53,093 nucleotides of DNA from an uncultured Myxococcales bacterium (GTDB lineage: Bacteria; Myxococcota; Myxococcia; Myxococcales; Myxococcaceae). Below, one piece after another: positions 3,920 through 43,829 of this stretch. A program made the position numbers and the translations under genes. The notes under the pieces were generated by a model. The model worked only from the letters and a program-made list of their open reading frames with translations, was not told the DNA's origin and searched no databases. The stretch covers positions 1-53,093 of the forward strand of contig CBIHPJ010000001.1 in the NCBI GenBank assembly GCA_966211295.1, read 5' to 3'. The stretch's first letter is position 1. Every line of letters starts with the position of its first letter.

Positions 3920-3935
3920 GGGCACATCACTTGCT
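3920..3935 (+). promoter_or_regulatory. Candidate sigma54 promoter GGGCAC-atcac-TTGCT
   Basis: GG-N10-GC spacing with 9/10 match to TGGCAC-N5-TTGC. It is intergenic, 12 nt upstream of ATG 3947 and about 300 nt upstream of cysH. Confidence 0.35.
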
Positions 3936-19398: not shown

Positions 19399-19425
19399 TG
19401 ACTGGTCGTTTACACCAAGTTCTAC

Positions 19426-19461: not shown

Positions 19462-19466
19462 ATACG

Positions 19467-22897: not shown

Positions 22898-23038
22898 GGG
22901 GACCGTCCCCCAGAGCACCCGTCGTGCCATTTCCGGGCTGTAAACCCAGCGAACAAGAGCGTGGATGGGGGTCGTGATTCTTTTTGCTTACATAATGCAA
23001 ATTTCCCGACGCCTGGGGACTACGGAGTCCAGCGAGTC

Positions 23039-23889: not shown

Positions 23890-23905
23890 TGCATCGCGTG
23901 CGCCA
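23890..23905 (-). promoter_or_regulatory. Candidate sigma54 promoter TGGCGC-acgcg-ATGCA
   Basis: Read on the minus strand, with exact GG-N10-GC spacing. It is about 37 nt upstream of the SDR ATG (23853), with an AAGGAG RBS in between. Confidence 0.4.
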
Positions 23906-23966
23906 GTTTCCCTCTCGCTCCGCTCAGTTCAGACGCCGGGCCGATCGGGTGGTAAGGCTTTGGGAC

Positions 23967-26066
23967 GTGAGCACCGAGCCCGAAGAAGTACGTGCAGCGC
24001 GCCAGCTGATCATGCGCGACGTGCTGCAGTGGGCGCTCCCCACCTCGGCGGTGCTCTCGTTCATCACGCTCACCACGTCCATCGTGTCGGGGATGTTTCC
24101 TCAGGTGTGGTCGCGCGGCGTGCCGAGCATGGTGTTGCTGGTGGTGAGCATCGTGTGCCTGGTGCTGATGCGGAGAGGCAAGCTCTTCGCGTCGGTGGTG
24201 TTGCTGATGAGCGGCATCTCGTTGGTGATCTTCATCACGCTCACCTTCAACGGCGGCGTGCGTGCGCCCGCGGCGATGTTGCTGTTCTTCCTGGTGGCGC
24301 TGTGCGGCTGGGTCTTTGGCCGAGTGGCGGCGTCGGTGATGGCGGGCATCTCGGCGGTGGTGGTGACGATCTATTTCGCGCTCGGCACGCTGGGCGTGCT
24401 CGCTGAGCCGCCGCTGGTGCCGCTCGTCGGCGAGTACGTGATGTTGCTGGTGATGACGGCGCTGATCTGGGGCACCTCGGCTTCTCCACCGAGCCGCATG
24501 CGCAGCGCGCTGATGAAGGGGCAGATTCGTGAGCGACAACTCCGCGAGGAGCAGGCCGCGCGCCTCGAGACCGCTCAGCGTTTTCAGGCGGTGTTCGACC
24601 AGACCCCGCACGCGGTGGGACTGCTCACGCCCGATGGCAAGTTGGAGACGGTGAACCGCGGGGGCCTCGCCTTCCTCGGCATTCGCGCGGAGGAGGTGCT
24701 GGGGAAGCCGTTTCCGCTGACGCCCTGGGTGCCGGTAGAGCAGCGCGAGCGCATGGAGCATGCGATCGCTCGAGCGCACAAGGGCGTGGTGCGGTTCGAG
24801 CTCACGCACACGGATCACAAAAAGCGGTCGCGGGTGATCGAGGTGACGCTCTCTCCCTTCCGAGCTCCGTCGGGCGCGGTGCGCTTCTTGATCATCGAGG
24901 GGCGCGATGTCACCGAGCTGAACCTCGCGCGCGAGCGGAAGCAGATCACGCAGCGGCTCGAGCTGGTGGGGAAGCTCGCAGGTGGCGTCGCGCACGACTT
25001 CAACAACGTGTTGATGGCGATTCTCGCGTCGACCGAGGTGATGCGCGTGGAGCTCGCCGCGGGGCAGCGCGACCCGAAGGAGCTCGAGGAGAACCTCGAC
25101 ACCATTCTCGAAGCGGGCCGGCGCGCGGGCGAGCTCACCCGGCGGCTGCTCACGTTCGCTCAGCGGGGCACGTTGGAGCGCAGAGCGGTCTCGGTGCACA
25201 CGCTGCTCGACTCCACCGTGAAGCTGCTGGAGCGCACGCTGCCGGTGAACATTCGGCTGGTGGTGGAGGCGAAGGCGACGCGCGATGTGGTGCAGGGAGA
25301 CGCGGCGTCGCTGGAGAGTGCGTTGATCAACCTGGCGATCAATGCGCGCGATGCGATGCCGAATGGCGGCACGGTGACCTTCTCGACGGAGTCCGTCGAG
25401 CTCGATGAAGAGTGGTGCCGCGGGAGTGGGTTCGATGTGAAGCCGGGGCCGTACTTGCGGCTCTCAGTGAAGGACACCGGAGTGGGCATCGCGCCTGAGC
25501 ACGTCACGCGGGTGTTCGAGCCGTTCTTCACGACGAAGGAAGAGGGCAAGGGGACGGGGCTCGGACTTCCTTCGGTGTTCGGCGTGGTGCGCGACCACCG
25601 CGGCACCGTGCACGTCACCTCGGAGCTCGGGCGTGGAAGTGAGTTTCTCCTCAGCCTTCCTCTGTCCGCTGCTGCGCAGGAGGCCGCGCCGGCGCCCGCT
25701 CCGCTTCTGCACTTCCCCGGCCTGCGCGCGCTGGTGGTGGACGACGAGCTGGGCATTCGGAAGATGCTCGGGCGGTTGCTGCACAGCCTGGAGATCGAGG
25801 CGACTCAGGTGGCGAGCGCAGAGGAAGCGCTCAGCGCGTTCACTGGGCAGCAGTTGCTGATCACGGATGTCGTGCTCTCAGGTCGACGCGGCAACGAGTT
25901 GGCGGCGGAATTGCTCGCGAAGAATCCCGCGCTGCGGGCGTTGTTGATCTCTGGTTTTCCGAAGGACAGCGAGCTGTCCACGTTGCCTGCGGATCGCGTG
26001 CGGATGCTGGCGAAGCCGTTCACGCTCGAGACGCTGCAGGGCGCGATCGCGGAGCTGATTCACTGA
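23967..26066 (+). CDS. Hybrid sensor histidine kinase (multi-TM sensor, PAS, HisKA, HATPase_c, receiver)
   Basis: The parts are six hydrophobic helices, a PAS-like segment, the H-box LAGGVAHDFNNVLMAI, the N/G boxes (NLAINARDAM, GTGLGL), and a C-terminal REC domain (LVVDDE..ITDVVL..KPF). The start is uncertain: GTG 23967 or ATG 24012. ORF start 23883 would overlap the divergent promoter. Confidence 0.85.
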   Translation: MSTEPEEVRAARQLIMRDVLQWALPTSAVLSFITLTTSIVSGMFPQVWSRGVPSMVLLVVSIVCLVLMRRGKLFASVVLLMSGISLVIFITLTFNGGVRAPAAMLLFFLVALCGWVFGRVAASVMAGISAVVVTIYFALGTLGVLAEPPLVPLVGEYVMLLVMTALIWGTSASPPSRMRSALMKGQIRERQLREEQAARLETAQRFQAVFDQTPHAVGLLTPDGKLETVNRGGLAFLGIRAEEVLGKPFPLTPWVPVEQRERMEHAIARAHKGVVRFELTHTDHKKRSRVIEVTLSPFRAPSGAVRFLIIEGRDVTELNLARERKQITQRLELVGKLAGGVAHDFNNVLMAILASTEVMRVELAAGQRDPKELEENLDTILEAGRRAGELTRRLLTFAQRGTLERRAVSVHTLLDSTVKLLERTLPVNIRLVVEAKATRDVVQGDAASLESALINLAINARDAMPNGGTVTFSTESVELDEEWCRGSGFDVKPGPYLRLSVKDTGVGIAPEHVTRVFEPFFTTKEEGKGTGLGLPSVFGVVRDHRGTVHVTSELGRGSEFLLSLPLSAAAQEAAPAPAPLLHFPGLRALVVDDELGIRKMLGRLLHSLEIEATQVASAEEALSAFTGQQLLITDVVLSGRRGNELAAELLAKNPALRALLISGFPKDSELSTLPADRVRMLAKPFTLETLQGAIAELIH

Positions 26067-26095
26067 GTCGAGAAGATCGCCGCTGCTACCGACCT

Positions 26096-26533
26096 TCATG
26101 CGCTGAGCTTGCCCAGTACACCGCCGAACACGAGGTGCGCGCCGAGCATCACCAACGAGCGATCAGGCCGGTCACGCGTAGGTGGCTGCATCAGGCCGAA
26201 CTTCGGAACCCAACCGAAGTAGCTCGCCGCCCACACTCCGGTGCCGAAGAGCATTCCTTCCGCGACCGGATGATTCGGCATCACCTTGCCGCGAACCGCG
26301 CGCTCGTAGAGCTTCCCGCACGCGCTGCCGTAGCTGAGGTGCGAGGCCACCGTGGACAGTTCCTCGGCCTTCTTGCTGCGCGGCAGATGCAGACGATTCA
26401 GAAGTCGCCCCATGAGCTTGCGGGGCGGCAACCGACCGGTGAGGCCCGCACGTTGAGCCGCGAGCATCAACCCGCCCATGGCGAGCGAAGCCACCACACC
26501 CGCCGTACCGCCTCCGAATTTTGGAAGTCTCAT
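26096..26533 (-). CDS. Hypothetical small membrane protein
   Basis: Size is 145 aa, with three to four hydrophobic segments. It begins 9 nt downstream of the SDR stop on the same strand, so the two look like an operon. Confidence 0.5.
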   Translation of the reverse strand: MRLPKFGGGTAGVVASLAMGGLMLAAQRAGLTGRLPPRKLMGRLLNRLHLPRSKKAEELSTVASHLSYGSACGKLYERAVRGKVMPNHPVAEGMLFGTGVWAASYFGWVPKFGLMQPPTRDRPDRSLVMLGAHLVFGGVLGKLSA

Positions 26534-26542
26534 GTTCCTCCC

Positions 26543-27382
26543 TCAGGCGGAGATGTGGCCGCCGCCGTTGACGTGAATGAGTTGCCCCGTCACGTAGCTC
26601 GCGTCCTGGCTCGCGAGGAACACGTACGCAGGCGCGACCTCGGCCGGTTGTCCCGGTCGATGCAGCAACGTGTCGTTCCCGAACTGCGCCACGCGCGCCT
26701 TCGAGAACGACGCCGGAATCAGCGGCGTCCAGATCGGCCCTGGCGCCACTGCGTTCACGCGAATCCCGCGCGGAGCGAGCGACTTCGCCAAGGAGAAGGT
26801 CAGCGCGTGAATCGCACCCTTGGTGGAGGCGTAATCGAGCAGCGTGTCAGACCCGCGCACGCCGGTGACCGAGCCCGTGTTGATGATGCATCCATCATCC
26901 GGCAGGTGCTTCAGCGCCTCGTCGATCAAATAGAAGAACGAGAAGAGATTGTTCTCGAACGTCTTGCGCACGTGGCTGGGCGTGAGGTCCTCCGCCTCCT
27001 CCACGGGGAACTGCTGCGCGTGATTGTTCACCAACACATCGAGCCCACCCCACTTCGCCACGACCCGCTCGATCGTCCTGTGACAGTTCGCGGGTGAGGC
27101 GAGATCGCTCTTGATGATCAGCGCCTCGGTGCCCTCCTGCTCGATGAGGCGCTGTGTCTCGCGCGCATCAGCGTCTTCAGACAGGTACGCGATCGCCACC
27201 TTCGCTCCCTCTCTCGCGAAGTGCACCGCCACCGAGCGGCCGATGCCACTGTCTCCTCCCGTGATGAGCGCGACCTTGCCCATCAGCTTTCCGCTCCCTC
27301 GATAGGTGGGCCGAATCGTCACAGGCTCGGGATGCATCAACGCCTGGTGACCAGGCTGTTTCTTCTGCGCCTGCGCGGGCAT
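26543..27382 (-). CDS. SDR family oxidoreductase, YghA/YdaD (general stress protein 39)-like
   Basis: The N-terminus KKQPGHQALMHPEP..YRGSGKLMGKVALITGGDSGIGRS, the A(I/V)AYL motif and the catalytic Y..K are present. Alternative in-frame starts exist at 27403 and 27421. Confidence 0.85.
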   Translation of the reverse strand: MPAQAQKKQPGHQALMHPEPVTIRPTYRGSGKLMGKVALITGGDSGIGRSVAVHFAREGAKVAIAYLSEDADARETQRLIEQEGTEALIIKSDLASPANCHRTIERVVAKWGGLDVLVNNHAQQFPVEEAEDLTPSHVRKTFENNLFSFFYLIDEALKHLPDDGCIINTGSVTGVRGSDTLLDYASTKGAIHALTFSLAKSLAPRGIRVNAVAPGPIWTPLIPASFSKARVAQFGNDTLLHRPGQPAEVAPAYVFLASQDASYVTGQLIHVNGGGHISA

Positions 27383-27460
27383 CGTTCGCTTCTTGTGGGG
27401 CATCTGCGCGCATCGCTGCATCCCGCATTCCGACCTAGCCGAGCTTCGGAGCAGCGATCG

Positions 27461-27476
27461 TGGCACGCACGATGCT
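27461..27476 (+). promoter_or_regulatory. Candidate sigma54 promoter TGGCAC-gcacg-ATGCT
   Basis: 9/10 match to TGGCAC-N5-TTGC with exact GG-N10-GC spacing. It is 78 nt upstream of the DUF4142 gene ATG. Confidence 0.45.
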
Positions 27477-27553
27477 GCCTTCAGTCCCGAGGTGGCCGCA
27501 GCAGCGTTGAGCCACTGTCAGTCACCCGACACTCGAAACCCTGGAGCACACTC

Positions 27554-28369
27554 ATGAAAGCCTCAGCAGCGTTGAAGATGATGGGCCTGGCCGGCGCGCT
27601 CGTGTCGATCGGCGTCTTCGCAGCCGACGACAGTCGCACCAAGGACATGAACAAGGGCAAGGCCGACGCTTCGTTCGTCGAGCAGGCCGCGATGGCGAAC
27701 GTCTCTGAAATCAAGATGAGCGAGCTCGCGGTGAGCCAGAGCACCAACACCGCGGTGCGTGAGCTCGCGCAGCAGATGATCGACGACCACACCAAGGCCT
27801 TCGACTCACTTAAAGAGATCGCCAAGAACAAGGGCATCATGATGCCCTTCGACTCCGTCGGCTCGAGCGGCACGACGGGGTCTTCCAACTCGAAACCGAG
27901 CACCGGCGGCACCGGCGCCTCGCGCGGCACCGGCAGCAGCGGCACCGGTTCCTCCGACACACTCGGCTCCGACAAGATGGGCTCGAGCAGTGGCATGAAC
28001 AACGACATGGCGCCTCCTCCCGAGCAGCCCTCGGTGAGCGAGCCCGCGTCGTCGGGTGAGCGCATGGGCGCCACCGATCGCATGAACACCGAGCCGAAGA
28101 ACGTCTACGGGCAGCTCAACAGCGAGTCGCAGAAGAAGTACGACGAGCTCGCGAAGCTGACGGGCGAGAAGTTCGACAAGAAGTACCTCGGCACCATCGT
28201 CGACGCGCACAAGAAGGCCATCAAGCTGTTCGAGAAGGAGTCGAAGAGCGGTGAGGATTCCGAGCTCAAGAGCTTCGCGACCAACACCCTCCCGACCCTC
28301 AAGCACCACCTCGACATGGCGCAGAACGTCGAGAACGAGGTCAAGAACGCGAAGAAGCCGAGCATGTAA
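27554..28369 (+). CDS. DUF4142 domain protein, secreted, with long Ser/Gly/Thr-rich internal linker
   Basis: Signal peptide MKASAALKMMGLAGALVSIGVFA. The FVEQAAMANVSEIKMSELA..QQMIDDHTKA and DKKYLGTIVDAHKKAIKLFE halves are DUF4142-like four-helix repeats. They are separated by a low-complexity segment of about 85 aa. Confidence 0.75.
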   Translation: MKASAALKMMGLAGALVSIGVFAADDSRTKDMNKGKADASFVEQAAMANVSEIKMSELAVSQSTNTAVRELAQQMIDDHTKAFDSLKEIAKNKGIMMPFDSVGSSGTTGSSNSKPSTGGTGASRGTGSSGTGSSDTLGSDKMGSSSGMNNDMAPPPEQPSVSEPASSGERMGATDRMNTEPKNVYGQLNSESQKKYDELAKLTGEKFDKKYLGTIVDAHKKAIKLFEKESKSGEDSELKSFATNTLPTLKHHLDMAQNVENEVKNAKKPSM

Positions 28370-28389
28370 CTGAGGCGGTTTTGTCCGGG

Positions 28390-28430
28390 GTGCGGGCCAT
28401 CGAGGCGTGATGGCCGCACCCTCTTTCTGG
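28390..28430 (+). terminator. Candidate terminator hairpin after the DUF4142 gene
   Basis: GTGCGGGCCATC-gaggcgt-GATGGCCGCAC (one bulge) is followed by CCTCTTTCTGG. The T tract is weak. Confidence 0.4.
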
Positions 28431-28446
28431 CGTGCGGGGGTGGGCC

Positions 28447-30891
28447 ATGGCGAAGCGCGCCTCGCTGAAGACGTACCGAGCCAAGCGGCACTTCGGGGTG
28501 ACGCGCGAGCCGAGTCCTTCGGCGGAAGCGACTCCCTCGAAAGAGCTGCGGTTCATGATTCACAAACACGACGCGACGCGGCTCCACTACGACCTCCGTC
28601 TCGAGAGCGAGGGCGTGCTCGGCAGCTGGGCCTGCCCCAAGGGCCCCAGCTACGACCCGAAGCAGAAGCGCCTGGCCGTCGAGACCGAAGATCATCCGCT
28701 CGCGTACGGCGACTTCGAGGGACGAATCCCCGAGGGCGAATACGGCGCCGGCGATTCACTCATCTGGGATCGCGGAACGTTCGACACGGTCCCTCCCGGC
28801 GAGTTCAAGAAGCAGAAGGAGAAGGGACATCTTCACGTGCAGCTCCACGGGCAGAAGCTCGAAGGTGGCTGGCACCTGGTGCGCACGCGGCCTCAAGGCG
28901 GCAAGGCGCAGTGGCTCTTCTTCAAGGCGAAGGATGGAACCGAGCGACCCGACTACGACGTGATCGCCGAGCGGCCGGAGTCGGTGAAGAGCGGACGCAC
29001 CATCACGCGCGGTCCGCTGCGTAAGAGCGTGGCGCAGAAGCAGCTCGCGCCGGAGAAGCTCCTCGAGAAGGTGTGGCCTCCGATGCTGGCGACGCTCGCC
29101 GACGTCACCGCCGCCCCTTCGGAGCGCTTCTCCTTCGAGGTGAAATACGACGGCTATCGCGCGATCGCCGCGCTCTCGGGTGGCGAAGTCGCGGTGCGCT
29201 CGAGGAACCAGCTCGACTTCGCTTCACGCTTTCCGTTCCTGCAGCGAGCGTTCTCGTCGATCGTGGTCGGCAGCGCTGTGCTCGATGGAGAGATCGTCGC
29301 GATCGACGACGAAGAACGCTCCAGCTTCGCGCGCATCGGAGACTCCACCGCGCCGCATCGTTTCGTGGCCTTCGATCTCCTCTGGCTCGATGGCGAAGAC
29401 CTCCGCGCACGTCCGCTCGAGCAACGCCGCGAGCTGCTCGAGTCAGTGCTCGCCAACGCGAAGCCGCCCATCTTCCTCGCCGAGCGCGTTCCGGGAACGA
29501 CCGCTGAAGCCCTCGGCATCGCGCAGCAACACGGCTGGGAAGGATTGATCGCAAAGCGAAAGGGCTCTCCCTACGTGGGCACGCGCAGCGCGGAGTGGCT
29601 GAAGCTCAAACGTGTCGGCACCGCGGAGCTCGCGATCATCGGCTGGACTCCGCACTCCGCGGGCGCGGATGCAGTGGGCGCGCTGTTGCTCGCGGTGCAC
29701 GATCACGGCCGCTTCGTCTTCGCGGGAAAAGTCGGCACCGGCTTCGACACCAGGATGCGGGCGCGCTTGCTCAAGCTGTTGAAGAGCGACGAGGTGGAGA
29801 AGACCGAGGCCGAAGGCGCCCCTCGTCTCCGCAAGGCGCACTGGGTGAAGCCGCGCCACGTCGCGCAGGTGCGCTTCTCCGAGTGGACGCGCGACGGAAA
29901 GTTGAGACACCCGTCCTTCCTCGGACTGCGTGAAGACAAGGCGCCTGAGGAAGCAGCGCCCGAAGTCTCTCTCGGCAAGGGTTTCTTCGGAGCGCAGAGC
30001 ACCGGCGGCTTCGGCGTGTGGCACTCCAAGCGCGAGCCGGTTCCGATGACGAACGGCGATCGCGTGATGTTCCCCAAATCGCGCTTCACCAAGGCCGACG
30101 TGCGCACGTACTACGAGCTCGTCGCCGAGGTGATGGTGCCCGCGCTCGAGGGACGTCCGCTCTCCTTCCAGCAATGGCCCAAGGGGATCGCCGCGCCCAG
30201 CTTCTTCCGGCACGACGCGCGCGCGCATCCGCAGTGGCTCACCACTGAAGAAGTTCCGCACGCCGAGAAGAACATTCGCCACCTGATCGTCGATCGCCCC
30301 GAGGCCGTGCTCTGGCTCGCGAATCAGAACGCGCTCACGCTCCACATGACCTCGAGTCGCATCGGATCCCTCGAGGAACCCGACTGGGTCGCGTTCGATC
30401 TCGATCCTGCTGATGGATGGGAACAGCTGGTGCCGATCGCGCAGGCGCTCCACGGCTTGCTCGATGAGCTGAAACTCACCAGCGTGCCGAAGTCCTCGGG
30501 CAAGCGCGGACTCCACGTGTTGGTGCCGCTCGCCCCGGGATACACCCACGATCAAGCGCACGACTTCGCGGTGAGCGTCACCAGCGTGCTCGCGCAGAAG
30601 TTCCCCGAGCTCGCGACGACGGCGAGACCGCTCGCTCAACGCAAAGGACGGCTGTACCTCGATGCGGAACAGAACGGCCGCTTGAAGACCATGGTCGCGC
30701 CCTACTCCGTGCGCGCCGTCGAGGCCGCGTCGGTCTCCACACCTCTTCATTGGGACGAGGTGGACGTCTCGTTCGATCCTTCACGCTTCACCATCAAGAC
30801 GTTCGAGAAGCGCCTCGCGCAGGTGGGCGATCTCTTCGCGCCCGCGCTCAGTCACCAGGGGCGGCTCCCGAACCTCAAAGCCAAGGAGTGA
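28447..30891 (+). CDS. ligD: Multidomain NHEJ DNA ligase D (phosphoesterase-ligase-polymerase order)
   Basis: The N-terminal PE domain (YRAKRHFGVTREP, FMIHKHDATRLHYDLRLE) is followed by the ligase adenylation motif FEVKYDGYR and a C-terminal primase-polymerase domain. Size is 814 aa. Confidence 0.92.
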   Translation: MAKRASLKTYRAKRHFGVTREPSPSAEATPSKELRFMIHKHDATRLHYDLRLESEGVLGSWACPKGPSYDPKQKRLAVETEDHPLAYGDFEGRIPEGEYGAGDSLIWDRGTFDTVPPGEFKKQKEKGHLHVQLHGQKLEGGWHLVRTRPQGGKAQWLFFKAKDGTERPDYDVIAERPESVKSGRTITRGPLRKSVAQKQLAPEKLLEKVWPPMLATLADVTAAPSERFSFEVKYDGYRAIAALSGGEVAVRSRNQLDFASRFPFLQRAFSSIVVGSAVLDGEIVAIDDEERSSFARIGDSTAPHRFVAFDLLWLDGEDLRARPLEQRRELLESVLANAKPPIFLAERVPGTTAEALGIAQQHGWEGLIAKRKGSPYVGTRSAEWLKLKRVGTAELAIIGWTPHSAGADAVGALLLAVHDHGRFVFAGKVGTGFDTRMRARLLKLLKSDEVEKTEAEGAPRLRKAHWVKPRHVAQVRFSEWTRDGKLRHPSFLGLREDKAPEEAAPEVSLGKGFFGAQSTGGFGVWHSKREPVPMTNGDRVMFPKSRFTKADVRTYYELVAEVMVPALEGRPLSFQQWPKGIAAPSFFRHDARAHPQWLTTEEVPHAEKNIRHLIVDRPEAVLWLANQNALTLHMTSSRIGSLEEPDWVAFDLDPADGWEQLVPIAQALHGLLDELKLTSVPKSSGKRGLHVLVPLAPGYTHDQAHDFAVSVTSVLAQKFPELATTARPLAQRKGRLYLDAEQNGRLKTMVAPYSVRAVEAASVSTPLHWDEVDVSFDPSRFTIKTFEKRLAQVGDLFAPALSHQGRLPNLKAKE

Positions 30892-30894
30892 GTC

Positions 30895-31746
30895 ATGCCC
30901 GTACGCGCCATGTGGAAGGGATCGATCGGCTTCAGCCTGGTGAACATTCCGGTGTCACTGAGCCCCGCGGTCCGAGAGCAGGACTTGCGCTTCCATCAAC
31001 TCCACGACGCCGATGGAGGCCGCATTCGCGAGAAGCGCTTCTGCGAGAAGGACGGAGAAGAGGTGCCCTACGAGCACATCATCAAGGGCTTCGAGATCGA
31101 CAAACACCACACGGTGAAGGTGACGCGGGAGGAGTTGAAGGCGCTCGAGCCGAAGTCCGACAAGATGATCGCCATCGAGAACTTCGTGAAGCTCGAGGAG
31201 GTCGACCCGCTCTATTACGAGCGCTCCTATTACGTGTTTCCCGAGAAGCAGGGCGGGAAGGCGTATGCGTTGCTCGTCAGTGCGCTCAATGAAACGGGGC
31301 GCGTGGGGATCGCTCGCGTGGTGCTGAGCACCAAGCAGCACCTGTGTCTCATTCGCGTGGTGAATGACGTGCTGGTGCTCACCACGCTCGCGTTCGAGGA
31401 CGAGGTGGTGGAGGCGCCGAAGCTCGATCACCCCGCGACGAATGACAAAGAGCTCACCATGGCGAAGGCGCTCGTCTCGCAGCTCGAGGTGCCGTTCGAG
31501 CCGAAGCACTACAAGGACGAGCATCGCGAGCGCGTGCTCACGCTGCTGCAGCAGAAGGCGAAGGGACAGCCGCTGCAGTTGCCTTCGGGTGCGCCGGAAG
31601 AGTTGGTGAGCGGGAGCTTGACCGAGATCCTGGAACGGTCGCTCGCGAAGGCGAAGGAGCCGGAGCCTGCATCCAAGAAGCGCGCTTCACCGAAGCCGCA
31701 TCGGAGAACGAGAACGAAGACTCGGCGGGCACATCACGCTCACTGA
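30895..31746 (+). CDS. ku: Ku protein (NHEJ DNA end-binding)
   Basis: RAMWKGSIGFSLVNIPVSL is the canonical bacterial Ku N-terminus. The C-terminal tail is basic. It starts 3 nt after the ligD stop. Confidence 0.92.
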   Translation: MPVRAMWKGSIGFSLVNIPVSLSPAVREQDLRFHQLHDADGGRIREKRFCEKDGEEVPYEHIIKGFEIDKHHTVKVTREELKALEPKSDKMIAIENFVKLEEVDPLYYERSYYVFPEKQGGKAYALLVSALNETGRVGIARVVLSTKQHLCLIRVVNDVLVLTTLAFEDEVVEAPKLDHPATNDKELTMAKALVSQLEVPFEPKHYKDEHRERVLTLLQQKAKGQPLQLPSGAPEELVSGSLTEILERSLAKAKEPEPASKKRASPKPHRRTRTKTRRAHHAH

Positions 31747-31756
31747 GTTGCGCTTC

Positions 31757-31800
31757 GCCCATCTCCCCTGCCCCTCTCCCCGCTGACACAGGGAGAGGGA
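31757..31800 (+). repeat. REP-like element (subfamily 2) between convergent genes
   Basis: Sequence is GCCCATCTCCCCTGCCCCTCTCCCCGCTGACACAGGGAGAGGGA. Confidence 0.75.
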
Positions 31801-31805
31801 TTTGG

Positions 31806-33371: not shown

Positions 33372-33377
33372 GGCGGT

Positions 33378-33557
33378 TCAGTCCTGGGTCTGTTCCCAAT
33401 GGATGAGGCGAAGCTCGGCCTGGCGATGCGTGAGCTGGTAGCGAGTCATCAACTTCGCGATGAGTTGCTCGCGGTTGCCGTCGGCCTCGGTGCAGTCTTG
33501 ATTGGTGAGCTTGTCGAACTGCCTGATCAGCTCGCGCCAGCGTTCTTCGTTCTGCAC
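33378..33557 (-). CDS. Candidate small ORF (59 aa) upstream of the FAD/Rieske gene
   Basis: It falls just below the 60-aa cutoff of the ORF track. GTG start is preceded by GAGAGGAG at good spacing. The translation reads VQNEERWRELIRQFDKLTNQDCTEADGNREQLIAKLMTRYQLTHRQAELRLIHWEQTQD. The stop is 6 nt before the next ATG, and a sigma54-like promoter lies upstream. Confidence 0.35.
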   Translation of the reverse strand: MQNEERWRELIRQFDKLTNQDCTEADGNREQLIAKLMTRYQLTHRQAELRLIHWEQTQD

Positions 33558-33609
33558 GGGTCAGCTCCTCTCTTCGGGTGAGGTGAGAATCCCCAGCGAG
33601 AAGAACGTG

Positions 33610-33625
33610 TGCAGCGCATGTGCCA
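33610..33625 (-). promoter_or_regulatory. Candidate sigma54 promoter TGGCAC-atgcg-CTGCA
   Basis: Read on the minus strand, 9/10 to consensus with exact spacing. It is about 53 nt upstream of the GTG at 33557. Confidence 0.5.
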
Positions 33626-33656
33626 CGATCTCCGGGCTCTTCAGTCGCGTGCTGAG

Positions 33657-33672
33657 TGGCACCTCGCTTGCT
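33657..33672 (+). promoter_or_regulatory. Candidate sigma54 promoter TGGCAC-ctcgc-TTGCT (perfect consensus)
   Basis: 10/10 match to TGGCAC-N5-TTGC. It is 41 nt upstream of the yeaQ-like ATG, with a GGAGGA RBS in between. Confidence 0.6.
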
Positions 33673-33712
33673 GCCTCCCTGCTTCGGAGAACCCGTCCCA
33701 CTGGAGGATTCC

Positions 33713-33997
33713 ATGAGTCTGATTGCAATCATCGTTGTTGGATTTCTGGCCGGTCTCATCGCGCGCGCGTTGATGCCAGGTGATCAGTCGATGAGCCTGA
33801 TGCTCACGACCGTGCTTGGCATCGTCGGCTCGTTCGTCGGCGGCTTCATCGGCAACTTCATCTACAACCGCGGCGGCAACTTCATGGACTTCCACCCGAC
33901 CGGGTTGTTGTTCTCAGTGATCGGATCACTGGTCGTGCTCGGAGTAGTGATGATGACGCGAGGCCGGAGTGGTGGTGGCAGACCGCTGACCCGATGA
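33713..33997 (+). CDS. GlsB/YeaQ/YmgE family stress-response membrane protein
   Basis: IIVVGFLAGLIARALMPG..TVLGIVGSFVGGFIG is the transglycosylase-associated/YeaQ signature. Size is 94 aa. Confidence 0.85.
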   Translation: MSLIAIIVVGFLAGLIARALMPGDQSMSLMLTTVLGIVGSFVGGFIGNFIYNRGGNFMDFHPTGLLFSVIGSLVVLGVVMMTRGRSGGGRPLTR

Positions 33998-34031
33998 GGG
34001 CCAGCGGCTTCAACCGGACCCCGAGTGGGAG

Positions 34032-34529
34032 CTACTGCTTCCGCTCGGGGTTCTTGTTTCCCTCGCCAGTCGCCTTGAAGACCTTCGCGATGGAGAGCCC
34101 CAGCGCTCGAACGGTGTCGCGATCGGGGTACCCGGTGCGAGCGAACTCTTCGTCCTCCTGGAACTTCCGCAACGCGGCCGAGGTCTCCTCGTCGAGCTTG
34201 CCGGTCTTGTGATCCTTCGAGAGGTAGCCGCGCTTCGCGAGCGCTTTCTGGATCAAGTACGGACCATCGGGGAGCAGCAGCCCTTCCGGCGAAGCGGTGA
34301 GCTCAGGCCGCCCCTCTTCCGCCGGCGCGCGCGCCTCTTTCTGATCTCGCTGGTGCTTCTCCGAGCCTTCCGCGCTGCTCGCCGTCTTGGTCGGCTCCTT
34401 CGAACTCTTCTTCTGCTGCGGCTCTTCCTTCTGGTCCTTGTCTTTCCCTGTGTCGCCGCGATCGACCTTCTTGCTGTGAATGCAACCAACCGAGGCAGCC
34501 ACGAAGGCCGCGAGAATGAATCTCTTCAT
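34032..34529 (-). CDS. Lipoprotein with Lys/Glu-rich linker and C-terminal peptidoglycan-binding (PG_binding_1-like) domain
   Basis: Lipobox AASVGC. The C-terminus LIQKALAKRGYL..GKLDEETSAALRKFQEDEEFARTGYPDRDTVRALG matches the PGBD helical repeat. Confidence 0.7.
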   Translation of the reverse strand: MKRFILAAFVAASVGCIHSKKVDRGDTGKDKDQKEEPQQKKSSKEPTKTASSAEGSEKHQRDQKEARAPAEEGRPELTASPEGLLLPDGPYLIQKALAKRGYLSKDHKTGKLDEETSAALRKFQEDEEFARTGYPDRDTVRALGLSIAKVFKATGEGNKNPERKQ

Positions 34530-34531
34530 GA

Positions 34532-35680
34532 TCAGTTCCTTCCAGGCTCAGGCTTCGCCGGGGGTGACTTGTCTTTGTCGAGACCTTCGATGAGCTGCTT
34601 GATCGGCCCCTTCTTCTCTTCAGGCGGCGGGAGGCGCGAGTAGCTCTCGGACACGCCGATCACGAACGCGTTGCGCAGCACGCCGACCACCGCAGGCCAG
34701 AGCTGAATGCCGGGCTTGGTGATGTCTCCGCGCAGCGGGATCACCGTGGCCACGGCCTCGCGATTTCCCACGCGATCGCTGAACACCTTGATCGCCACGT
34801 CGGCGATCGCCGCCTTGATCGAGTTCCCGAGGCCCGGCTTCGCCTTCTCCACTTCGACGTTCTTGAGCACAGGCTTGATGCCGCCCTCGAGCTTTCCGGC
34901 GCGACAGTCGAACTCCGCGAAGAGATCGAGCGTGCCTTGAGAGGCCGTGAGGCCGGTCTCCGAGGCCATCGTCTTGCTCAGCTCCTTCAAGTCGAAGTTC
35001 TGAACGTTTGCCCGGCCCGCGAAGAAGAGCCCCTTCGCGAGCGGATCGGCGGTGAGGAACAGCGACAGCTGTCCTGACTCCTGCAGCGTGCCGGAGATCG
35101 CGATCGACGTTGGTTCGCCGCGAGCGAGGGCCGCGCGCGTGGAGAGGTTCTCGAGCGTGCCGTCGACCTCGTGAATCCAGACCTTGGGAAAATCCTCGTT
35201 GGTCTTGTCGGTGAAGAGCAGCGCCGCCTTCCGAATCTGAATGCGGTCCACCGTGAGCGGGATCGCCGCGGCCAGCTTGTCGGCGATATCGGGGATCTTC
35301 GGATCGAGCTGCTGCTCCTTCTCCTGCTTCGCTGCGATCAGGTTGAGCCTCGGGTTGTCCATCTCGATGCTCACCACCAGGTGCCCGTGGAGGAGCTCCT
35401 TGCCGTAGATGCCCGCCTCGACACGCTTGACCTCGATGTACGGCAGCTCATTGCCTCCCGCCGAAGGCCGCTTCACCTTGAGGCCCTTCATCACGTGGCG
35501 AAGTGGAATCAGCGAGAGCGAGGCGTCTTCGAAGGTCGGCTCGTAGCGCGGTGCGAACACCATCTCGAGCCGCTTCTGGGTCTGCCACTCGACGATCGGA
35601 TCGAGCGCGAACCAGCCCGCCACGAAGACCACCAGGATGATCAGCGGGGGAAGCCAATACCTCTTCTTCAGTCGGCGCAT
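34532..35680 (-). CDS. DUF748/AsmA-like membrane-anchored protein
   Basis: The N-terminal anchor YWLPPLIILVVFVAGWF is followed by repeated beta-rich segments resembling DUF748. The stop is 2 nt before the next gene. Confidence 0.55.
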   Translation of the reverse strand: MRRLKKRYWLPPLIILVVFVAGWFALDPIVEWQTQKRLEMVFAPRYEPTFEDASLSLIPLRHVMKGLKVKRPSAGGNELPYIEVKRVEAGIYGKELLHGHLVVSIEMDNPRLNLIAAKQEKEQQLDPKIPDIADKLAAAIPLTVDRIQIRKAALLFTDKTNEDFPKVWIHEVDGTLENLSTRAALARGEPTSIAISGTLQESGQLSLFLTADPLAKGLFFAGRANVQNFDLKELSKTMASETGLTASQGTLDLFAEFDCRAGKLEGGIKPVLKNVEVEKAKPGLGNSIKAAIADVAIKVFSDRVGNREAVATVIPLRGDITKPGIQLWPAVVGVLRNAFVIGVSESYSRLPPPEEKKGPIKQLIEGLDKDKSPPAKPEPGRN

Positions 35681-35717
35681 GCGCGTTCCTCCTGCAGAGG
35701 TTCAGCGACGACTCCAC

Positions 35718-35733
35718 TGCATCAACGACGCCA
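35718..35733 (-). promoter_or_regulatory. Candidate sigma54 promoter TGGCGT-cgttg-ATGCA
   Basis: Read on the minus strand with exact GG-N10-GC spacing. It is about 38 nt upstream of ATG 35680, with an AGGAGGA RBS in between. Its -24 and -12 blocks are the same as those of the 36809 site. Confidence 0.45.
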
Positions 35734-35857
35734 GTTCTGCGCGACTGGGCGAGCCGTCTCGCGGCGGCGCGAAGCGGTGCCCAGGCGTAGCGTCCCCAAA
35801 GGAAGCGCGTCACGAATGGGAGCTGCACACTCACTCACCAATCTTCGGGAACGAGCG

Positions 35858-36793
35858 ATGCACCACCTTGGCCTCATGAGACCTCTTCGAAATGCCTGGG
35901 AGGTGCTGCGGACGTCGGTCTCGGAGTTCTCACAGCAGCGCGTCGGCACGATGGCGGGCGCGCTCGCGTACTTCACCTTCTTCTCCATCGCTCCGATGGT
36001 GATCGTGGTGATCGCGGTGGCCGGTTTGGTCTTCGGGCACGAAGCCGCCTCAGGCGCGCTCAGTCACCACATGGAAGGGCTCGTCGGTCACGACAGCGCG
36101 CAAGCCATTCAGAGCCTGGTGCAAAGCGCGAGCGGCAAGAAGTCAGGCGTGCTCGCGACGATCATCGGCGTGATCACGATCATCTTCGGAGCGACGGGCG
36201 TTTTCTCCGAGCTGCAGGACTCGCTCAACAAGGTGTGGAAGGCGCCGCCGCTGAAGATCAACAAGGTGCTGGGCTTCTTCCGCACGCGCTTCCTCTCGTT
36301 CTCCGTGGTGCTCGGAGTCGGCTTCCTCTTGCTCGTGTCGCTGCTGATCAGCGTGGCGATCTCCACCGTGTGCAGCTGGATGGGGCGGTGTGACGAACTG
36401 GTGGGCAGAGTCACCGAGTGGACCGCCGGCTTCGGCATCACCACCCTGCTCTTCGCGCTGATCTTCAAGCTGCTGCCCGACGTGAAGGTGGCGTGGCGGC
36501 ACGTCTGGCAGGGCGCGCTGGTCACCGCGGTGCTGTTCACCGCCGGCAAGTGGATCCTCGGCTGGGTGATGGGCCACACCAGCATGCTCTCGACGTACGG
36601 CGCTGCCGCGTCACTCGCCGCGCTGCTGCTCTGGGTCTACTACTCGTCGATGATTCTCTTGTTCGGCGCGGAGATCTCTCACGTGATCGCGATGCGCGCG
36701 GGAGAGAAGCCCGAGGAGCACGTCGAAGCGCCCTGGGCCGAAGGCCACGAGGATCACGGTGAGCACGAGGGTCACGCTCAACCTTCGCACTGA
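35858..36793 (+). CDS. YihY/BrkB family membrane protein
   Basis: AGALAYFTFFSIAPMVIV, SELQDSLNKVW and the C-terminal LLLWVYYSSMILLFGAE are YihY/virulence-factor-BrkB hallmarks. An alternative start is at 35876. Confidence 0.85.
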   Translation: MHHLGLMRPLRNAWEVLRTSVSEFSQQRVGTMAGALAYFTFFSIAPMVIVVIAVAGLVFGHEAASGALSHHMEGLVGHDSAQAIQSLVQSASGKKSGVLATIIGVITIIFGATGVFSELQDSLNKVWKAPPLKINKVLGFFRTRFLSFSVVLGVGFLLLVSLLISVAISTVCSWMGRCDELVGRVTEWTAGFGITTLLFALIFKLLPDVKVAWRHVWQGALVTAVLFTAGKWILGWVMGHTSMLSTYGAAASLAALLLWVYYSSMILLFGAEISHVIAMRAGEKPEEHVEAPWAEGHEDHGEHEGHAQPSH

Positions 36794-36808
36794 GCCTCCC
36801 AGGAAAGA

Positions 36809-36824
36809 TGGCGTACCTGATGCA
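36809..36824 (+). promoter_or_regulatory. Candidate sigma54 promoter TGGCGT-acctg-ATGCA
   Basis: Exact GG-N10-GC spacing. It is 37 nt upstream of ATG 36861, with a GAGGGAG RBS in between. Confidence 0.45.
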
Positions 36825-36860: not shown

Positions 36861-37097
36861 ATGGCGCGATACGGGGCGAAGGCGAAGTCGAAGGTGAAGA
36901 GATCGATGCACGAGATGAAGCGAGGCACGCTCAAGAGCGGCCGCACCGGGCGCAAGGTGCGCAATCGCAGACAGGCGATCGCCATCGGCCTGAGCGAGGC
37001 GCGCAAAGCGGGCGGCAAGGTTCCGAAGCGCCGGAAATCCTCGCGCAAGAGCAGCACCCGCAGCCGTCGCACTTCTTCCCGCCGTTCACGTCGCTGA
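36861..37097 (+). CDS. DUF6496-like small basic protein (78 aa)
   Basis: The core is MHEMKRGTLKSGRTGRKVRNRRQAIAIGLSEARKAG, followed by a poly-basic Ser/Arg tail. Confidence 0.7.
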   Translation: MARYGAKAKSKVKRSMHEMKRGTLKSGRTGRKVRNRRQAIAIGLSEARKAGGKVPKRRKSSRKSSTRSRRTSSRRSRR

Positions 37098-37109
37098 AGG
37101 AGACACGCC

Positions 37110-43087: not shown

Positions 43088-43208
43088 GTGCGAGCTCCTC
43101 GAACGAAATCCCACTGCATGCGGCGGACCCAGAGGTGTGGCGTCACCCCGCAGGAGCTGCGATCCACGCAGAACGCGCGTGGGCATTCTTGTTGCTCCCT
43201 CTGAGTGC

Positions 43209-43721: not shown

Positions 43722-43829
43722 ACACCGTCACCAACCGCACCCGTGTGGCTCCACGCTTCCTGCTGGGTCTCGGCGCCAGCTGGTGAGCGCGATTCCAACG
43801 GCACGGTTAGCGCATTCCTTGGAGGCACC

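Follow-up and report, generated by a model that had tools for sequence, protein, structure and literature searches.

Sigma-54 RNA polymerase forms a stable closed complex at its promoter, and DNA opening requires an AAA+ enhancer-binding protein (EBP) that hydrolyses ATP. General stress regulons are known with dedicated sigma factors, namely SigB in Bacillus, RpoS in Gammaproteobacteria and EcfG in Alphaproteobacteria. A compilation of sigma-54 promoters was reportedly made by Barrios et al. in 1999. The consensus is given as TGGCACG-N4-TTGCW (PMC9765219). The highest EBP counts reported are those of Myxococcota (PMC12316311). In Myxococcus xanthus the regulons of the EBP Nla28 (and of Nla6) make up a starvation and sporulation response, and most predicted Nla28 promoters are reported to be intragenic (PMC9765219). 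A second system in the phylum is the PexR/sigma-54 peroxide-stress system (katB-ankB, ahpCD-dps). According to its authors, it may be active in Acidobacteriota, Nitrospirota, Planctomycetota and Pseudomonadota too (PMC12754779).

The locus described here lies in a window of 53,093 nt (the whole stretch of DNA analysed) from a soil myxobacterium-like genome. It holds a cluster of two SDRs, DUF4142-LigD-Ku, orf59 with a FAD/Rieske oxidoreductase, YeaQ/GlsB, DUF748 with a peptidoglycan-binding lipoprotein, DUF6496-Dps, a secreted 170-aa protein and a DUF3175 protein. These Pfam families, among them proteins of DNA-end repair and the iron-storage protein Dps, are typical of general-stress regulons elsewhere, as an initial annotation had proposed. 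Trehalose genes lie near the cluster.

Promoter sites

Six GG-N10-GC sites had been listed in the initial annotation, and all six 16-mers were verified by coordinate and strand. Sites were scored with a position weight matrix (PWM) that only approximates the published consensus. Transcription is predicted to start about 11 nt past each 16-mer, which would leave leaders of 26-67 nt.
23890..23905, minus strand: SDR1 promoter TGGCGCACGCGATGCA, gene 23086-23853, predicted start ~23879, 11.0 bits, intergenic
27461..27476, plus strand: DUF4142 promoter TGGCACGCACGATGCT, operon 27554-31746, predicted start ~27487, 15.7 bits
33610..33625, minus strand: promoter of orf59 and the FAD/Rieske oxidoreductase TGGCACATGCGCTGCA, genes 31806-33557, predicted start ~33599, 15.6 bits
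33657..33672, plus strand: YeaQ/GlsB (Transgly_assoc) promoter TGGCACCTCGCTTGCT, gene 33713-33997, predicted start ~33683, 15.3 bits
35718..35733, minus strand: promoter of DUF748 and the PG_binding lipoprotein TGGCGTCGTTGATGCA, genes 34032-35680, predicted start ~35707, 11.1 bits
36809..36824, plus strand: promoter of DUF6496 and Dps/ferritin TGGCGTACCTGATGCA, genes 36861-37673, predicted start ~36835, 12.0 bits

The orientation and the distance of 37-78 nt to a start codon were right for 6/6 sites (37, 78, 53, 41, 38 and 37 nt with our own start calls), and the gene identities agreed with Pfam. The starts of DUF4142, orf59, YeaQ, DUF6496 and Dps match database gene calls on near-identical contigs. 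The YeaQ/GlsB and orf59-FAD/Rieske promoters stand back-to-back with 31 bp between them. Two further features belong to these units.
27554..31746, plus strand: target operon of DUF4142, LigD (phosphoesterase, ligase and primase-polymerase domains) and Ku, by Pfam
34016..34053, plus strand: GC-rich hairpin of 17 bp where the YeaQ and PG_binding genes converge, from a terminator scan

The hairpin is likely a bidirectional terminator bounding two sigma-54 units. In the operon the gene gaps are 77 and 3 nt and the gene order is identical in related loci L161, L163, L164 and L165; transcription from the DUF4142 promoter probably continues into ligD-ku. Two short public contigs identical to DUF4142-ligD (L168, L169) begin 14 and 40 nt past the predicted start and run into ligD without promoter DNA, which was counted in favour of the promoter.

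The list of six was real but incomplete, since sites at SDR2, orf67 and DUF1592 had been overlooked. Together with two of the three sites earlier called weaker, the third of which lies at 43799..43814, the additional candidates are as follows.
27417..27432, minus strand: weak promoter CGGAATGCGGGATGCA of SDR2 and a 145-aa membrane protein, genes 26096-27403, 8.0 bits in the window
43181..43196, plus strand: promoter GGGCATTCTTGTTGCT of hyp170 (the secreted 170-aa protein), gene 43209-43721, 12.5 bits
43115..43130, minus strand: weak candidate promoter GGGTCCGCCGCATGCA of a DUF3175/DUF6496 gene, 42386-43087, below 6 bits in the PWM
3920..3935, plus strand: promoter GGGCACATCACTTGCT of orf67 (small membrane ORF MHWFHG..., ATG at 3947), 13.1 bits, intergenic
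22914..22929, minus strand: possible promoter TGGCACGACGGGTGCT of the DUF1592/DUF1552 pair, genes 19467-22897, 14.2 bits

The SDR2 promoter is back-to-back with that of DUF4142 (28 bp between), and its orthologous sites outscore the window copy: TGGAATGGACCATGCA and TGGAATGGACGATGCA reach 13.8 bits (L163, L164), with 12.7 bits in L001 and 10.2 bits in L161. The window copies at SDR2 and DUF3175 are far off consensus (8 bits or less). The hyp170 site is kept in relatives and looks real, its ortholog being preceded by CGGCATTCTTGTTGCT in L162 and L163 and by CGGCACCCTTGTTGCT in L002. The DUF3175 site stays tentative at its low score, with positional counterparts identified by eye in two relatives: AGGAACCGCGGTTGCA in L162, 24 nt from the start codon versus 27 nt here, and GGGTACCGCCATTGCA in L002, about 60 nt ahead of it. 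The orf67 site, which adjoins a 4HBT thioesterase gene, has counterparts in L001 (GGGCACACCACTTGCT) and in L165 (CGGCACATCGCTTGCT, with ATGCACTGGTTCC 12 nt further on).

The predicted mRNA would be nearly leaderless at hyp170, as the ATG lies 12 nt past the 16-mer, and leaderless at orf67, where it lies 11 nt past. The DUF1592 site has its ATG only 16 nt downstream and TGGCACGCCGGGTGCT at the same place in L161; it is uncertain owing to the single close relative available for comparison and the leader of about 5 nt. Predicted leaders of 1-5 nt at these three further sites are unusual and count against reading them as promoters. Overall, the region from 22.9 to 44.3 kb has about 16 transcription units, and roughly 9-11 of them are covered by sigma-54 sites. 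Judged from sequence, at least eight promoters have good support, and the possible total rises to eleven.

Placement and spacing

Chance matches in GC-rich DNA would account for the sites without any sigma-54 involvement, and the loose pattern TGGC-N8-TGC is indeed not enriched across the window (14 found, 10.5 expected). The tests run refute this reading, to which we give practically no weight. All PWM matches of at least 11 bits (9/9) are fully intergenic, compared with 4.4% of positions (binomial p ~7e-13); the intergenic share of the window is about 5.4%, not the roughly 8% estimated earlier. In 500 shuffles of the intergenic DNA the mean was 0.28 matches and the maximum 2, against 9 observed. 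With the correct spacer 4 matches of at least 14 bits were found in the window, and none with spacers shortened or lengthened by 1 to 3 nt. At 11 bits or more, GG-N10-GC gave 40 matches in six relatives versus 6-13 at other spacings. Every PWM match faces a start codon 9-78 nt away. Chance is also opposed by the conserved orthologous positions in up to nine genomes.

Conservation

The relatives, whose genomes include GCA_030683055.1, GCA_030695565.1 and GCA_031412555.1, are MAGs labelled Archangium sp. and metagenome contigs. In up to nine syntenic relatives the sites are found again at orthologous positions, and L161-L165, L001, L002 and L081 share the cluster, with sites at matching junctions. 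The SDR1 16-mer is identical or near-identical at the orthologous place in L161, L162, L163 and L164. The DUF4142 site is kept in L161, L162, L163, L164, L001, L165 and L166, even at a protein identity as low as 38%, the orf59-FAD/Rieske site in L161, L162, L164, L001, L002, L081 and L165, and the YeaQ/GlsB site in 7 relatives at 14.4-16.6 bits. Orthologs of the DUF748 site read TGGCCCTGATTCTGCA (L162-L164), TGGCCCTGCTTCTGCA (L001), TGGCGCCGAACGTGCA (L161) and TGGCGTCGATCGTGCA (L165). Those of the DUF6496-Dps site precede DUF6496 or Dps itself in L161, L162, L163, L002 and L165.

Pairwise identity over 55 orthologous sites was 1.00 for GG and TGC, 0.73-0.98 for other consensus positions, 0.50-0.64 for the spacer and 0.33-0.42 for the flanks, figures that are partly circular, as the sites were chosen with the same PWM. 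Unanchored MAFFT alignments also gave the -24 and -12 blocks as conservation islands at DUF4142, YeaQ, DAO, SDR1 and SDR2. Among strain variants the orf59-FAD/Rieske site (L170-L178) and the DUF6496-Dps site (L179-L183) are unchanged, and the YeaQ/GlsB site differs only at positions 7 and 10. Strain-level changes fall between two back-to-back promoters and in the -10..-1 stretch, sparing consensus bases. Beyond the lineage, a sigma-54 site of at least 12 bits lies upstream of the FAD/Rieske gene in 29/153 orthologous loci of other phyla, where nearby sites precede KGG/LEA, YflT, DUF883, DUF5670 and DUF6496 genes.

These blocks might instead be bound by some other protein, for instance a repressor or another sigma factor, and match the sigma-54 consensus by coincidence. 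Some off-consensus sites (TGGAAT, TGGCCC) leave an opening for this account, but nothing speaks positively for it, and we regard it as very improbable. Conservation coincides exactly with the positions of the sigma-54 consensus, T-GG-C-A-C and T-T-GC-W at fixed spacing, the sites are asymmetric and all directed at the adjacent gene, and the start-codon distances of the six reported sites fit a 26-67 nt leader. No sigma-70 consensus promoter was found in 22.8-38 kb, and no EcfG-type motif (GGAAC-N16-17-CGTT) in these gaps; a search for Rfam elements found none. That the sites are genuine sigma-54 (RpoN) -24/-12 promoters is strongly supported by their placement, by the specificity of the spacing and by phylogenetic footprints in up to nine relatives.

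Activator and regulation

The window encodes no EBP, in agreement with the initial annotation: none of the 48 called genes matched Sigma54_activat, and translation in six frames showed no GAFTGA motif. The contig has no rpoN gene. An enhancer motif common to the upstream regions of all promoters was not found, and several divergent pairs, only 2-40 bp apart, leave no room for an enhancer between their promoters. Two candidate enhancer copies and one candidate sensor were recorded.
33577..33587, plus strand: candidate enhancer (UAS), GGTGAGGTGAG block in the orf59 leader, some 70-80 nt upstream of the -24 element of YeaQ, tentative
35830..35846, minus strand: second candidate enhancer copy GGTGAGTGAGTGTGCAG, some 100 nt upstream of the -24 element of DUF748, tentative
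23967..26066, plus strand: hybrid histidine kinase PAS-HisKA-HATPase_c-REC, divergent from SDR1, by Pfam

The GGTGAGGTGAG block is unchanged in strain variants, and GTGAGTGAGGCAG occurs in exactly two copies per locus in L162, L163 and L001, each midway between divergent sigma-54 promoters. The candidate pattern did not reach window-wide significance. The kinase stays inside the cluster in L161-L164 and adjoins the DUF4142 gene in L166, a locus that differs in other respects; it is a candidate sensor, its functional link being inferred.

The best joint explanation, which we consider quite probable, is that, in an uncultured myxobacterium-like lineage, most operons of a conserved cluster are preceded by sigma-54 promoters that depend on an ATP-driven activator. 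With such promoters before its operons, the block is probably switched on by an activator of this type. Sigma-54 RNA polymerase would sit at each site as a stable closed complex, and opening would wait for ATP hydrolysis by an AAA+ EBP. Given this requirement, the genes would stay tightly silent as long as the activator is inactive. The activator or activators would be encoded outside the 53-kb contig, and the PAS hybrid histidine kinase would be the most likely sensor, passing its signal to an NtrC-type response-regulator EBP. Family names in the gene content suggest a stress or desiccation response; from NHEJ repair, Dps, small membrane and envelope stress proteins and the nearby trehalose genes, the trigger would most likely be starvation, stationary phase or desiccation.

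A single stress regulon under one activator is plausible. Alternatively, each pair or operon could have its own EBP, the clustering of real promoters reflecting heavy sigma-54/EBP use in Myxococcota. Such an arrangement would fit upstream regions without a common motif, the division of the -24/-12 variants into sub-types (TGGCAC..TTGCT, TGGCGY..ATGCA, TGGAAT..ATGCA and TGGCCY..CTGCA), a GTGAG-repeat candidate enhancer at only two of the intergenic regions, and the highest EBP counts being those of Myxococcota (PMC12316311). We hold it to be rather unlikely in view of the extreme density, with sites at 9-11 of the roughly 16 transcription units within 21 kb, the keeping together of the whole block and its promoters in at least 7 genomes, the functional grouping of these families in stress regulons of other organisms and the one kinase kept inside the block. 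The earlier proposal of an undescribed sigma-54 stress regulon is partly supported. Promoter placement, spacing and footprinting favour the sigma-54 reading, and the downstream families are of stress type; control of all promoters by one activator would be an additional assumption.

Comparison with known systems

No description of a sigma-54 gene set of this kind was found in the literature searched. The sites resemble canonical sigma-54 promoters in the invariant GG and GC 10 nt apart, the extended consensus, the asymmetry, the 37-78 nt to start codons and the presumed requirement for a distant AAA+ activator. They differ in that the targets are of general-stress type, rather than nitrogen, flagella, psp, rtc or similar genes, several divergent pairs lie 2-40 bp apart, and two or three predicted mRNAs are leaderless or near-leaderless.

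The Nla28/Nla6 systems belong to the same phylum and likewise place sigma-54 promoters at starvation and stress genes, with an NtrC-type EBP and a partner kinase. The upstream regions here show no excess of tandem Nla28 half-sites CT(C/G)CG(C/G)AG (16 found, 15.3 expected), the sites, unlike most predicted Nla28 promoters, are all intergenic, and the gene set differs. PexR is likewise a sigma-54-dependent stress response in Myxococcota with dps among the affected loci. Its palindrome CACCG-N6-CGGTG is in none of the promoter regions; pexR adjoins its targets, whereas no EBP is present here, and the small PexR regulon has at its core catalase and peroxiredoxin, both absent from this cluster.

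With the SigB, RpoS and EcfG regulons the cluster shares Dps, YeaQ/GlsB, Ku/LigD, SDRs and small membrane proteins, and the loci of other phyla add KGG, YflT and DUF883/YtxH-type proteins to this overlap. The promoter type here is sigma-54, so activation would proceed through an ATPase activator and not through sigma-factor release or partner switching.

Probable sigma-54 sites in the window

A gene map of the window was made from codon-position GC and codon usage, giving 48 genes and a non-coding share of 5.4%. The initial annotation had named six 16-mers as sigma-54 promoters. All six were found at the coordinates and on the strands listed below, and in our own gene map they lie 37-78 nt 5' of start codons and face them. 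Pfam bore out the genes behind them: an SDR (SDR1); DUF4142, then LigD and Ku; an FAD (DAO) and Rieske oxidoreductase with a 59-aa ORF (orf59) ahead; a Transgly_assoc protein (YeaQ/GlsB); DUF748 with a PG_binding_1 protein; and DUF6496 with a Dps-type ferritin. Public gene calls on near-identical contigs agree on the starts of DUF4142 (271 aa), orf59 (59 aa), YeaQ (94 aa), DUF6496 (78 aa) and Dps (187 aa).

The scoring matrix covers 16 positions and approximates the sigma-54 consensus as published, in its extended form TGGCAC-N5-TTGCW; its scores are to be read as relative. On this scale the six sites reach 11.0-15.7 bits, and the GG and GC dinucleotides are exactly 10 nt apart in all sites. 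Nine matches of at least 11 bits were found, the six and three others. Predicted transcription starts were placed about 11 nt after each 16-mer.

Predicted sigma-54 sites in the window
23890-23905, minus strand: site before SDR1, predicted start ~23879
27461-27476, plus strand: site before DUF4142, predicted start ~27487
33610-33625, minus strand: site before orf59 and the FAD/Rieske gene, predicted start ~33599
33657-33672, plus strand: site before YeaQ/GlsB, predicted start ~33683
35718-35733, minus strand: site before DUF748, predicted start ~35707
36809-36824, plus strand: site before DUF6496 and Dps, predicted start ~36835
3920-3935, plus strand: site GGGCACATCACTTGCT, small membrane ORF (orf67) downstream, adjoins a 4HBT thioesterase gene
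22914-22929, minus strand: site TGGCACGACGGGTGCT, DUF1592 lipoprotein gene downstream, ATG after 16 nt
43181-43196, plus strand: site GGGCATTCTTGTTGCT, gene for a secreted 170-aa protein (hyp170) downstream, ranked among the weaker sites by the initial annotation
27417-27432, minus strand: weak copy CGGAATGCGGGATGCA before the second SDR gene (SDR2), 8 bits, spotted via relatives
43115-43130, minus strand: degenerate site before a DUF3175 gene, spotted via relatives

The SDR2 site scores 8 bits here against 12.7-13.8 bits in three related loci (L001, L163, L164). A weak match at 35847-35862, before BrkB, was considered doubtful; it overlaps the start codon chosen by database gene callers in relatives. 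Of the 16 transcription units in the stretch from 22.9 to 44.3 kb, some 9-11 are preceded by a site of this kind.

Predicted leaders measure 26-67 nt at the six reported sites and 1-5 nt at orf67, hyp170 and DUF1592. At orf67 (MHWFHG...; 3920-3949) and hyp170 (43181-43211) the ATG follows the 16-mer by only 11-12 nt, so that the mRNAs would be leaderless. The orf67 arrangement (12 nt, ATGCACTGGTTCC) recurs in the related locus L165 at 5996-6026; the hyp170 ortholog in L162 and L002 has a leader of 49-64 nt with a Shine-Dalgarno sequence.

Placement, spacing and chance expectation

The loose pattern TGGC-N8-TGC is not enriched window-wide (14 observed, 10.5 expected). All nine matches of at least 11 bits are fully intergenic and face a gene, with 4.4% of positions intergenic (binomial p ~7e-13). 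Shuffled intergenic segments (n = 500) gave a mean of 0.28 such matches and a maximum of 2. At a threshold of at least 14 bits the window holds four matches with the correct spacer and none with spacers 1-3 nt shorter or longer; in six related loci, at least 11 bits, the correct spacer gave 40 matches and wrong spacers 6-13. The objection that equally good matches might occur at equal density inside coding sequence was checked in the window and falls, because good matches concentrate in intergenic DNA, the top ones all lying there, and are spacer-specific.

Conservation in relatives

Syntenic loci were reached via the FAD/Rieske and DUF4142 proteins. L161, an ENA contig, has the gene order of the window and a DUF4142 protein 73% identical. 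L162, L163 and L164 are NCBI MAGs at 51-56% identity, L162 and L163 labelled Archangium sp.; L165 is 44% identical and L166, in another neighbourhood, 38%. Further syntenic loci are L001, L002 and L081. Cultured Myxococcus was absent from the close matches, and a metagenome scan added few close relatives. From the labels and nature of these syntenic relatives, the lineage is taken to be an uncultured group filed under Myxococcota.

The orthologous junction carries a sigma-54-type site in every one of these syntenic loci (L161-L166, L001, L002, L081). Versions of the DUF4142 site across loci are TGGCACGCACGATGCT, TGGCACGACCAATGCT, TGGCACGCTGAATGCT, TGGCACGCCAAATGCT, TGGCACGCGCGATGCT and TGGCACACGCGATGCT; those of the YeaQ site are TGGCACCTCGCTTGCT, ..CTGCC.., ..TCACC.., ..CCGCC.. 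and ..CGCGC... In unanchored MAFFT alignments the -24 and -12 blocks stand out as conserved islands within diverged intergenic DNA. Pairwise identity, computed for 55 orthologous sites that form 11 groups, was 1.00 at GG and TGC and 0.73-0.98 at other consensus positions; it fell to 0.50-0.64 across the spacer and to 0.33-0.42 in flanks of 25 nt. These figures are partly circular, since the sites were located with the same matrix. Among 46 distinct orthologous sites, the -24 side has T in 32/46, GG in 46/46, then C in 38/46, A in 31/46 and C in 30/46; on the -12 side T, GC and a following A or T are each present in 46/46.

In strain variants (L170-L178) of the YeaQ/orf59 gap, substitutions cluster at two places, the 31 bp separating the back-to-back promoters and positions -10..-1 of the orf59 promoter, and both 16-mers vary at non-consensus positions only. 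Judged by these alignments, the predicted -24/-12 elements are selectively conserved.

Where the window has the small membrane gene 3' of the hybrid kinase, L164 and L165 have a gene for a DOT1-like methyltransferase. A sigma-54-like site lies directly before this gene in L164 (6272-6287) and ~300 nt upstream in L165 (5996-6011 to 6316).

Promoter geometry and enhancer search

EBP binding sites are as a rule repeats or dyads located 70-150 nt upstream. K-mer counting and an EM motif finder were applied to the -200..-27 regions and gave nothing common to all promoters; sequence shared by divergent promoters inflates the top-ranking 16-mer of the window. GGTGAGKKGAG occurs 6 times window-wide against 3.9 expected, which is not significant. 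The 9-mer GTGAGGCAG has exactly two copies per locus in L162, L163 and L001, sitting within GTGAGTGAGGCAG in L162 and L163. Each copy is found halfway between two divergent sigma-54 promoters, those of DAO/YeaQ in one case and of DUF748/Dps or BrkB in the other. This GTGAG-repeat is an enhancer candidate at two intergenic regions.

Candidate enhancers (GTGAG-repeat) in the window
33577-33587: GGTGAGGTGAG, ~70-105 nt upstream of the YeaQ promoter, strain-invariant
35830-35846: GGTGAGTGAG, ~70-105 nt upstream of the DUF748 promoter

The gap between divergent promoters is 28 bp (SDR2/DUF4142) and 31 bp (orf59/YeaQ) in the window, and 2 bp (DUF748/BrkB) in L165. With promoters back to back, an enhancer would lie inside the neighbouring transcribed region, or the activator would work without specific DNA binding. 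These divergent pairs (L165 15048-15081; window 27417-27476 and 33610-33672) leave 2-31 bp between -24 elements. Two holoenzymes would hardly fit the closest of them at once, which suggests mutual exclusion or a shared activation geometry.

The DUF4142 leader and transcript-like contigs

Two short JGI contigs, L168 (Ga0150985_118402522) and L169 (Ga0150984_105899661), are identical to the DUF4142-ligD stretch. L168 begins at window position 27527 and L169 at 27501, 40 and 14 nt past the predicted DUF4142 start; positions 1-19 of L168, directly before the 27527 start, are an Illumina adapter remnant, ACGTGTGCTCTTCCGATCT. Both contain no promoter DNA and cross the 77-nt gap into ligD, and may be transcript assemblies. 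The assemblies behind them (samples Ga0150984, Ga0150985) are presumably metatranscriptomes; if so, they would directly support both transcription from the sigma-54 promoter and a joint transcript of DUF4142 and ligD. For YeaQ, DUF6496 and Dps, look-ups for similar short contigs yielded nothing but ordinary metagenome contigs.

A conserved hairpin was seen in the 5' leader of the DUF4142 mRNA (window ~27489-27533, alignment A1). Five genomes have the same stem, GAGGTGGC / G(Y)CACCCG, without change; its apical part is 10 to 30 nt long, depending on the genome, and shows 4 compensatory pairs. An invariant CACTCGAAA then follows. The hairpin may serve as a stabiliser, as a regulatory element or as an enhancer acting on the divergent SDR2 promoter.

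Activator, kinase and proposed mechanism

Sigma-54 promoters stay tightly off until an ATPase activator fires. At each site the sigma-54 holoenzyme would wait as a closed complex, and transcription would begin only once an AAA+ enhancer-binding protein (EBP) hydrolyses ATP. The initial annotation had noted that the window encodes no EBP, and this holds: none of the 48 genes has a Sigma54_activat domain, and a GAFTGA motif is missing from all six frames. The 53-kb contig also has no rpoN, and neither catalase nor AhpC was found in the window. In L001, which extends 3.4 kb past the left end of the window, the added stretch holds an epimerase and a membrane glycosyltransferase and no EBP. Across 160 DAO/Rieske loci screened, full-length EBPs were found in just two (L008, L074); these are only 40% identical over REC + AAA+, with DNA-binding domains that cannot be aligned to each other.

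A PAS-HisKA-HATPase-REC hybrid kinase (23967-26066) lies inside the cluster, as it does in L161-L164, and adjoins DUF4142 also in the otherwise unrelated locus L166. We infer that this kinase would be the sensor and that its partner would be an NtrC-type EBP encoded elsewhere. For the small gene that follows (26096-26533), an Hpt domain was considered and ruled out; it encodes a membrane protein.

Starvation, stationary phase or desiccation is a plausible trigger, judged by gene content, namely NHEJ (LigD/Ku), Dps, YeaQ, envelope proteins, and genes at 47.9-51.9 kb for making and breaking down trehalose. The trehalose genes, an OtsA-OtsB fusion (trehalose-phosphate synthase/phosphatase) and a GH15 trehalase-like gene near the cluster (47945-51921), have no good sigma-54 site; the sole nearby match (52031-52045, minus strand) is weak and overlaps the start of the next gene. 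M. xanthus has sigma-54, its deletion is reported lethal, and EBP counts are highest in Myxococcota (PMC12316311).

Other genes of the window were recorded alongside. In a sulfate-assimilation operon, a 1050-aa protein (7276-10428) combines a CysN-type, EF-Tu-like GTPase with CysJ-type domains (flavodoxin, FAD-binding, NAD-binding), a fusion conserved in relatives (L162 1-2788, L163 1-2349). A HipA-like kinase (HipA_2) gene and a DUF3037 gene overlap by 23 nt (41256-42384) and look like a two-gene module; just upstream is the gene for a 478-aa collagen-triple-helix-repeat protein (39629-41065).

Distant lineages

The distant set comprised 153 loci from many phyla encoding a FAD/Rieske ortholog. 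Within 290 nt upstream, on the coding strand, 29/153 carry a site scoring 12 bits or more; a control stretch of equal length within the gene gave 0/153, and the opposite strand 8/153, mostly divergent promoters. The version TGGCATRTCCTATGCG is common to 15 loci, ~55 nt before the FAD/Rieske start. Ten of these 15 bear an organism label, nearly all Gemmatimonadaceae/Gemmatimonadales. Sites were also found in loci labelled Thermoanaerobaculia, Pirellulales, Bdellovibrionales and Deltaproteobacteria. A contig labelled Nitrososphaeraceae archaeon (L030, CAVSLF010000011.1) has a FAD/Rieske gene with the TGGCATACCCTATGCG promoter type, as in Gemmatimonadaceae-labelled loci, and may be mis-binned.

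Strong sites precede other genes in these loci. DUF5670 stands behind one (up to 17.5 bits) in four loci, three labelled Pyrinomonadaceae, with a near-perfect site in that family; others lie before DUF6496 (Pirellulales), a DUF883/YtxH-like gene (Planctomycetota), YflT (Acidobacteriota), a two-domain glyoxalase (Gemmatimonadaceae) and an SRPBCC membrane protein (Gemmataceae). L008, from a groundwater Deltaproteobacteria MAG (JACQOU010000389.1, 48% GC), is an independent dense island of sigma-54-like sites, with at least 10 of them at 13 bits or more in a 21.5-kb locus. They precede KGG/LEA_5, CBS and other small proteins, with the FAD/Rieske gene alongside and an NtrC-type EBP (19035-20510) beside the site island.

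In the spacing control on the distant loci, matches with the correct spacer numbered 119 against ~54 outside long ORFs and 37 against ~35 inside them. Their surplus is thus confined to DNA outside long ORFs, and a single distant site is ~45% likely to be noise. The pattern of predicted sites in distant loci is a lead, not a result.

Interpretation

As DNA elements these sites are ordinary predicted sigma-54 promoters, with the defining sequence features of spacing, extended consensus, placement and selective conservation. The sigma-54 reading of the sites is well supported and we consider it probable. That they form one regulon under one activator, and that this is induced by stress, are plausible inferences. 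A cross-phylum sigma-54 stress or dormancy regulon is a possible extension of this reading. More specifically, sigma-54 with a dedicated activator might serve as a general stress/dormancy switch in Myxococcota, Gemmatimonadota, Acidobacteriota and Planctomycetota, soil phyla without a known general-stress sigma factor, and might control a recurring group of protective families, namely the FAD/Rieske oxidoreductase, DUF4142-LigD-Ku, YeaQ, Dps/DUF6496, KGG/LEA, YflT, DUF883, DUF5670 and glyoxalase-type proteins; this we put forward tentatively, as a proposal somewhat short of an even chance.

To our knowledge, no RpoS/SigB/EcfG equivalent for starvation and drying has been described in Myxococcota, Acidobacteriota, Gemmatimonadota or Planctomycetota. 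The window offers a compact conserved block with a recognisable sigma-54 promoter at nearly every operon and a conserved sensor kinase beside them. It thereby provides a defined promoter set, a motif for regulon-defining genome scans, and a kinase that is expected to pair with the missing activator. If sigma-54 control is true, protective genes such as those of NHEJ repair and Dps would be kept off during growth and then come on decisively; if the cross-phylum pattern holds, a major physiological role would be added to sigma-54.

Comparison with known regulators

Tandem CT(C/G)CG(C/G)AG upstream of promoters is the feature of Nla28 of M. xanthus (half-site consensus, PMC9765219), but it is not enriched here: half-sites with at most 1 mismatch numbered 16 against 15.3 expected in 9 x 250 nt. 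PexR of Myxococcota (PMC12754779) is marked by a repeated palindrome, an adjacent pexR and katB/ahpC targets, whereas none of these occurs here; the palindrome CACCG-N6-CGGTG, with at most 2 mismatches, is absent from every promoter-bearing intergenic region. Since these defining operator motifs were looked for and not found, the sites are placed outside the described Nla28 and PexR circuits.

Other promoter classes were searched for in the same DNA. The EcfG-type motif GGAAC-N16-17-CGTT has 2 matches in the window, both coding, against 1.45 expected, and none in gaps. E. coli-type sigma-70 consensus promoters were absent from 22.8-38 kb, and Rfam families from the window. By sequence, the sites thus fit genuine sigma-54 promoters and no other tested class. 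A full-text literature search, which is no proof of novelty, returned no paper tying sigma-54 to this gene set, and a 2025 cross-phylum survey of predicted sigma-54 regulons leaves Dps, trehalose, Acidobacteria and Gemmatimonadetes unmentioned (PMC12316311). The gene set is like those of the general-stress regulons run by SigB, RpoS and EcfG, but its promoters are of another type.
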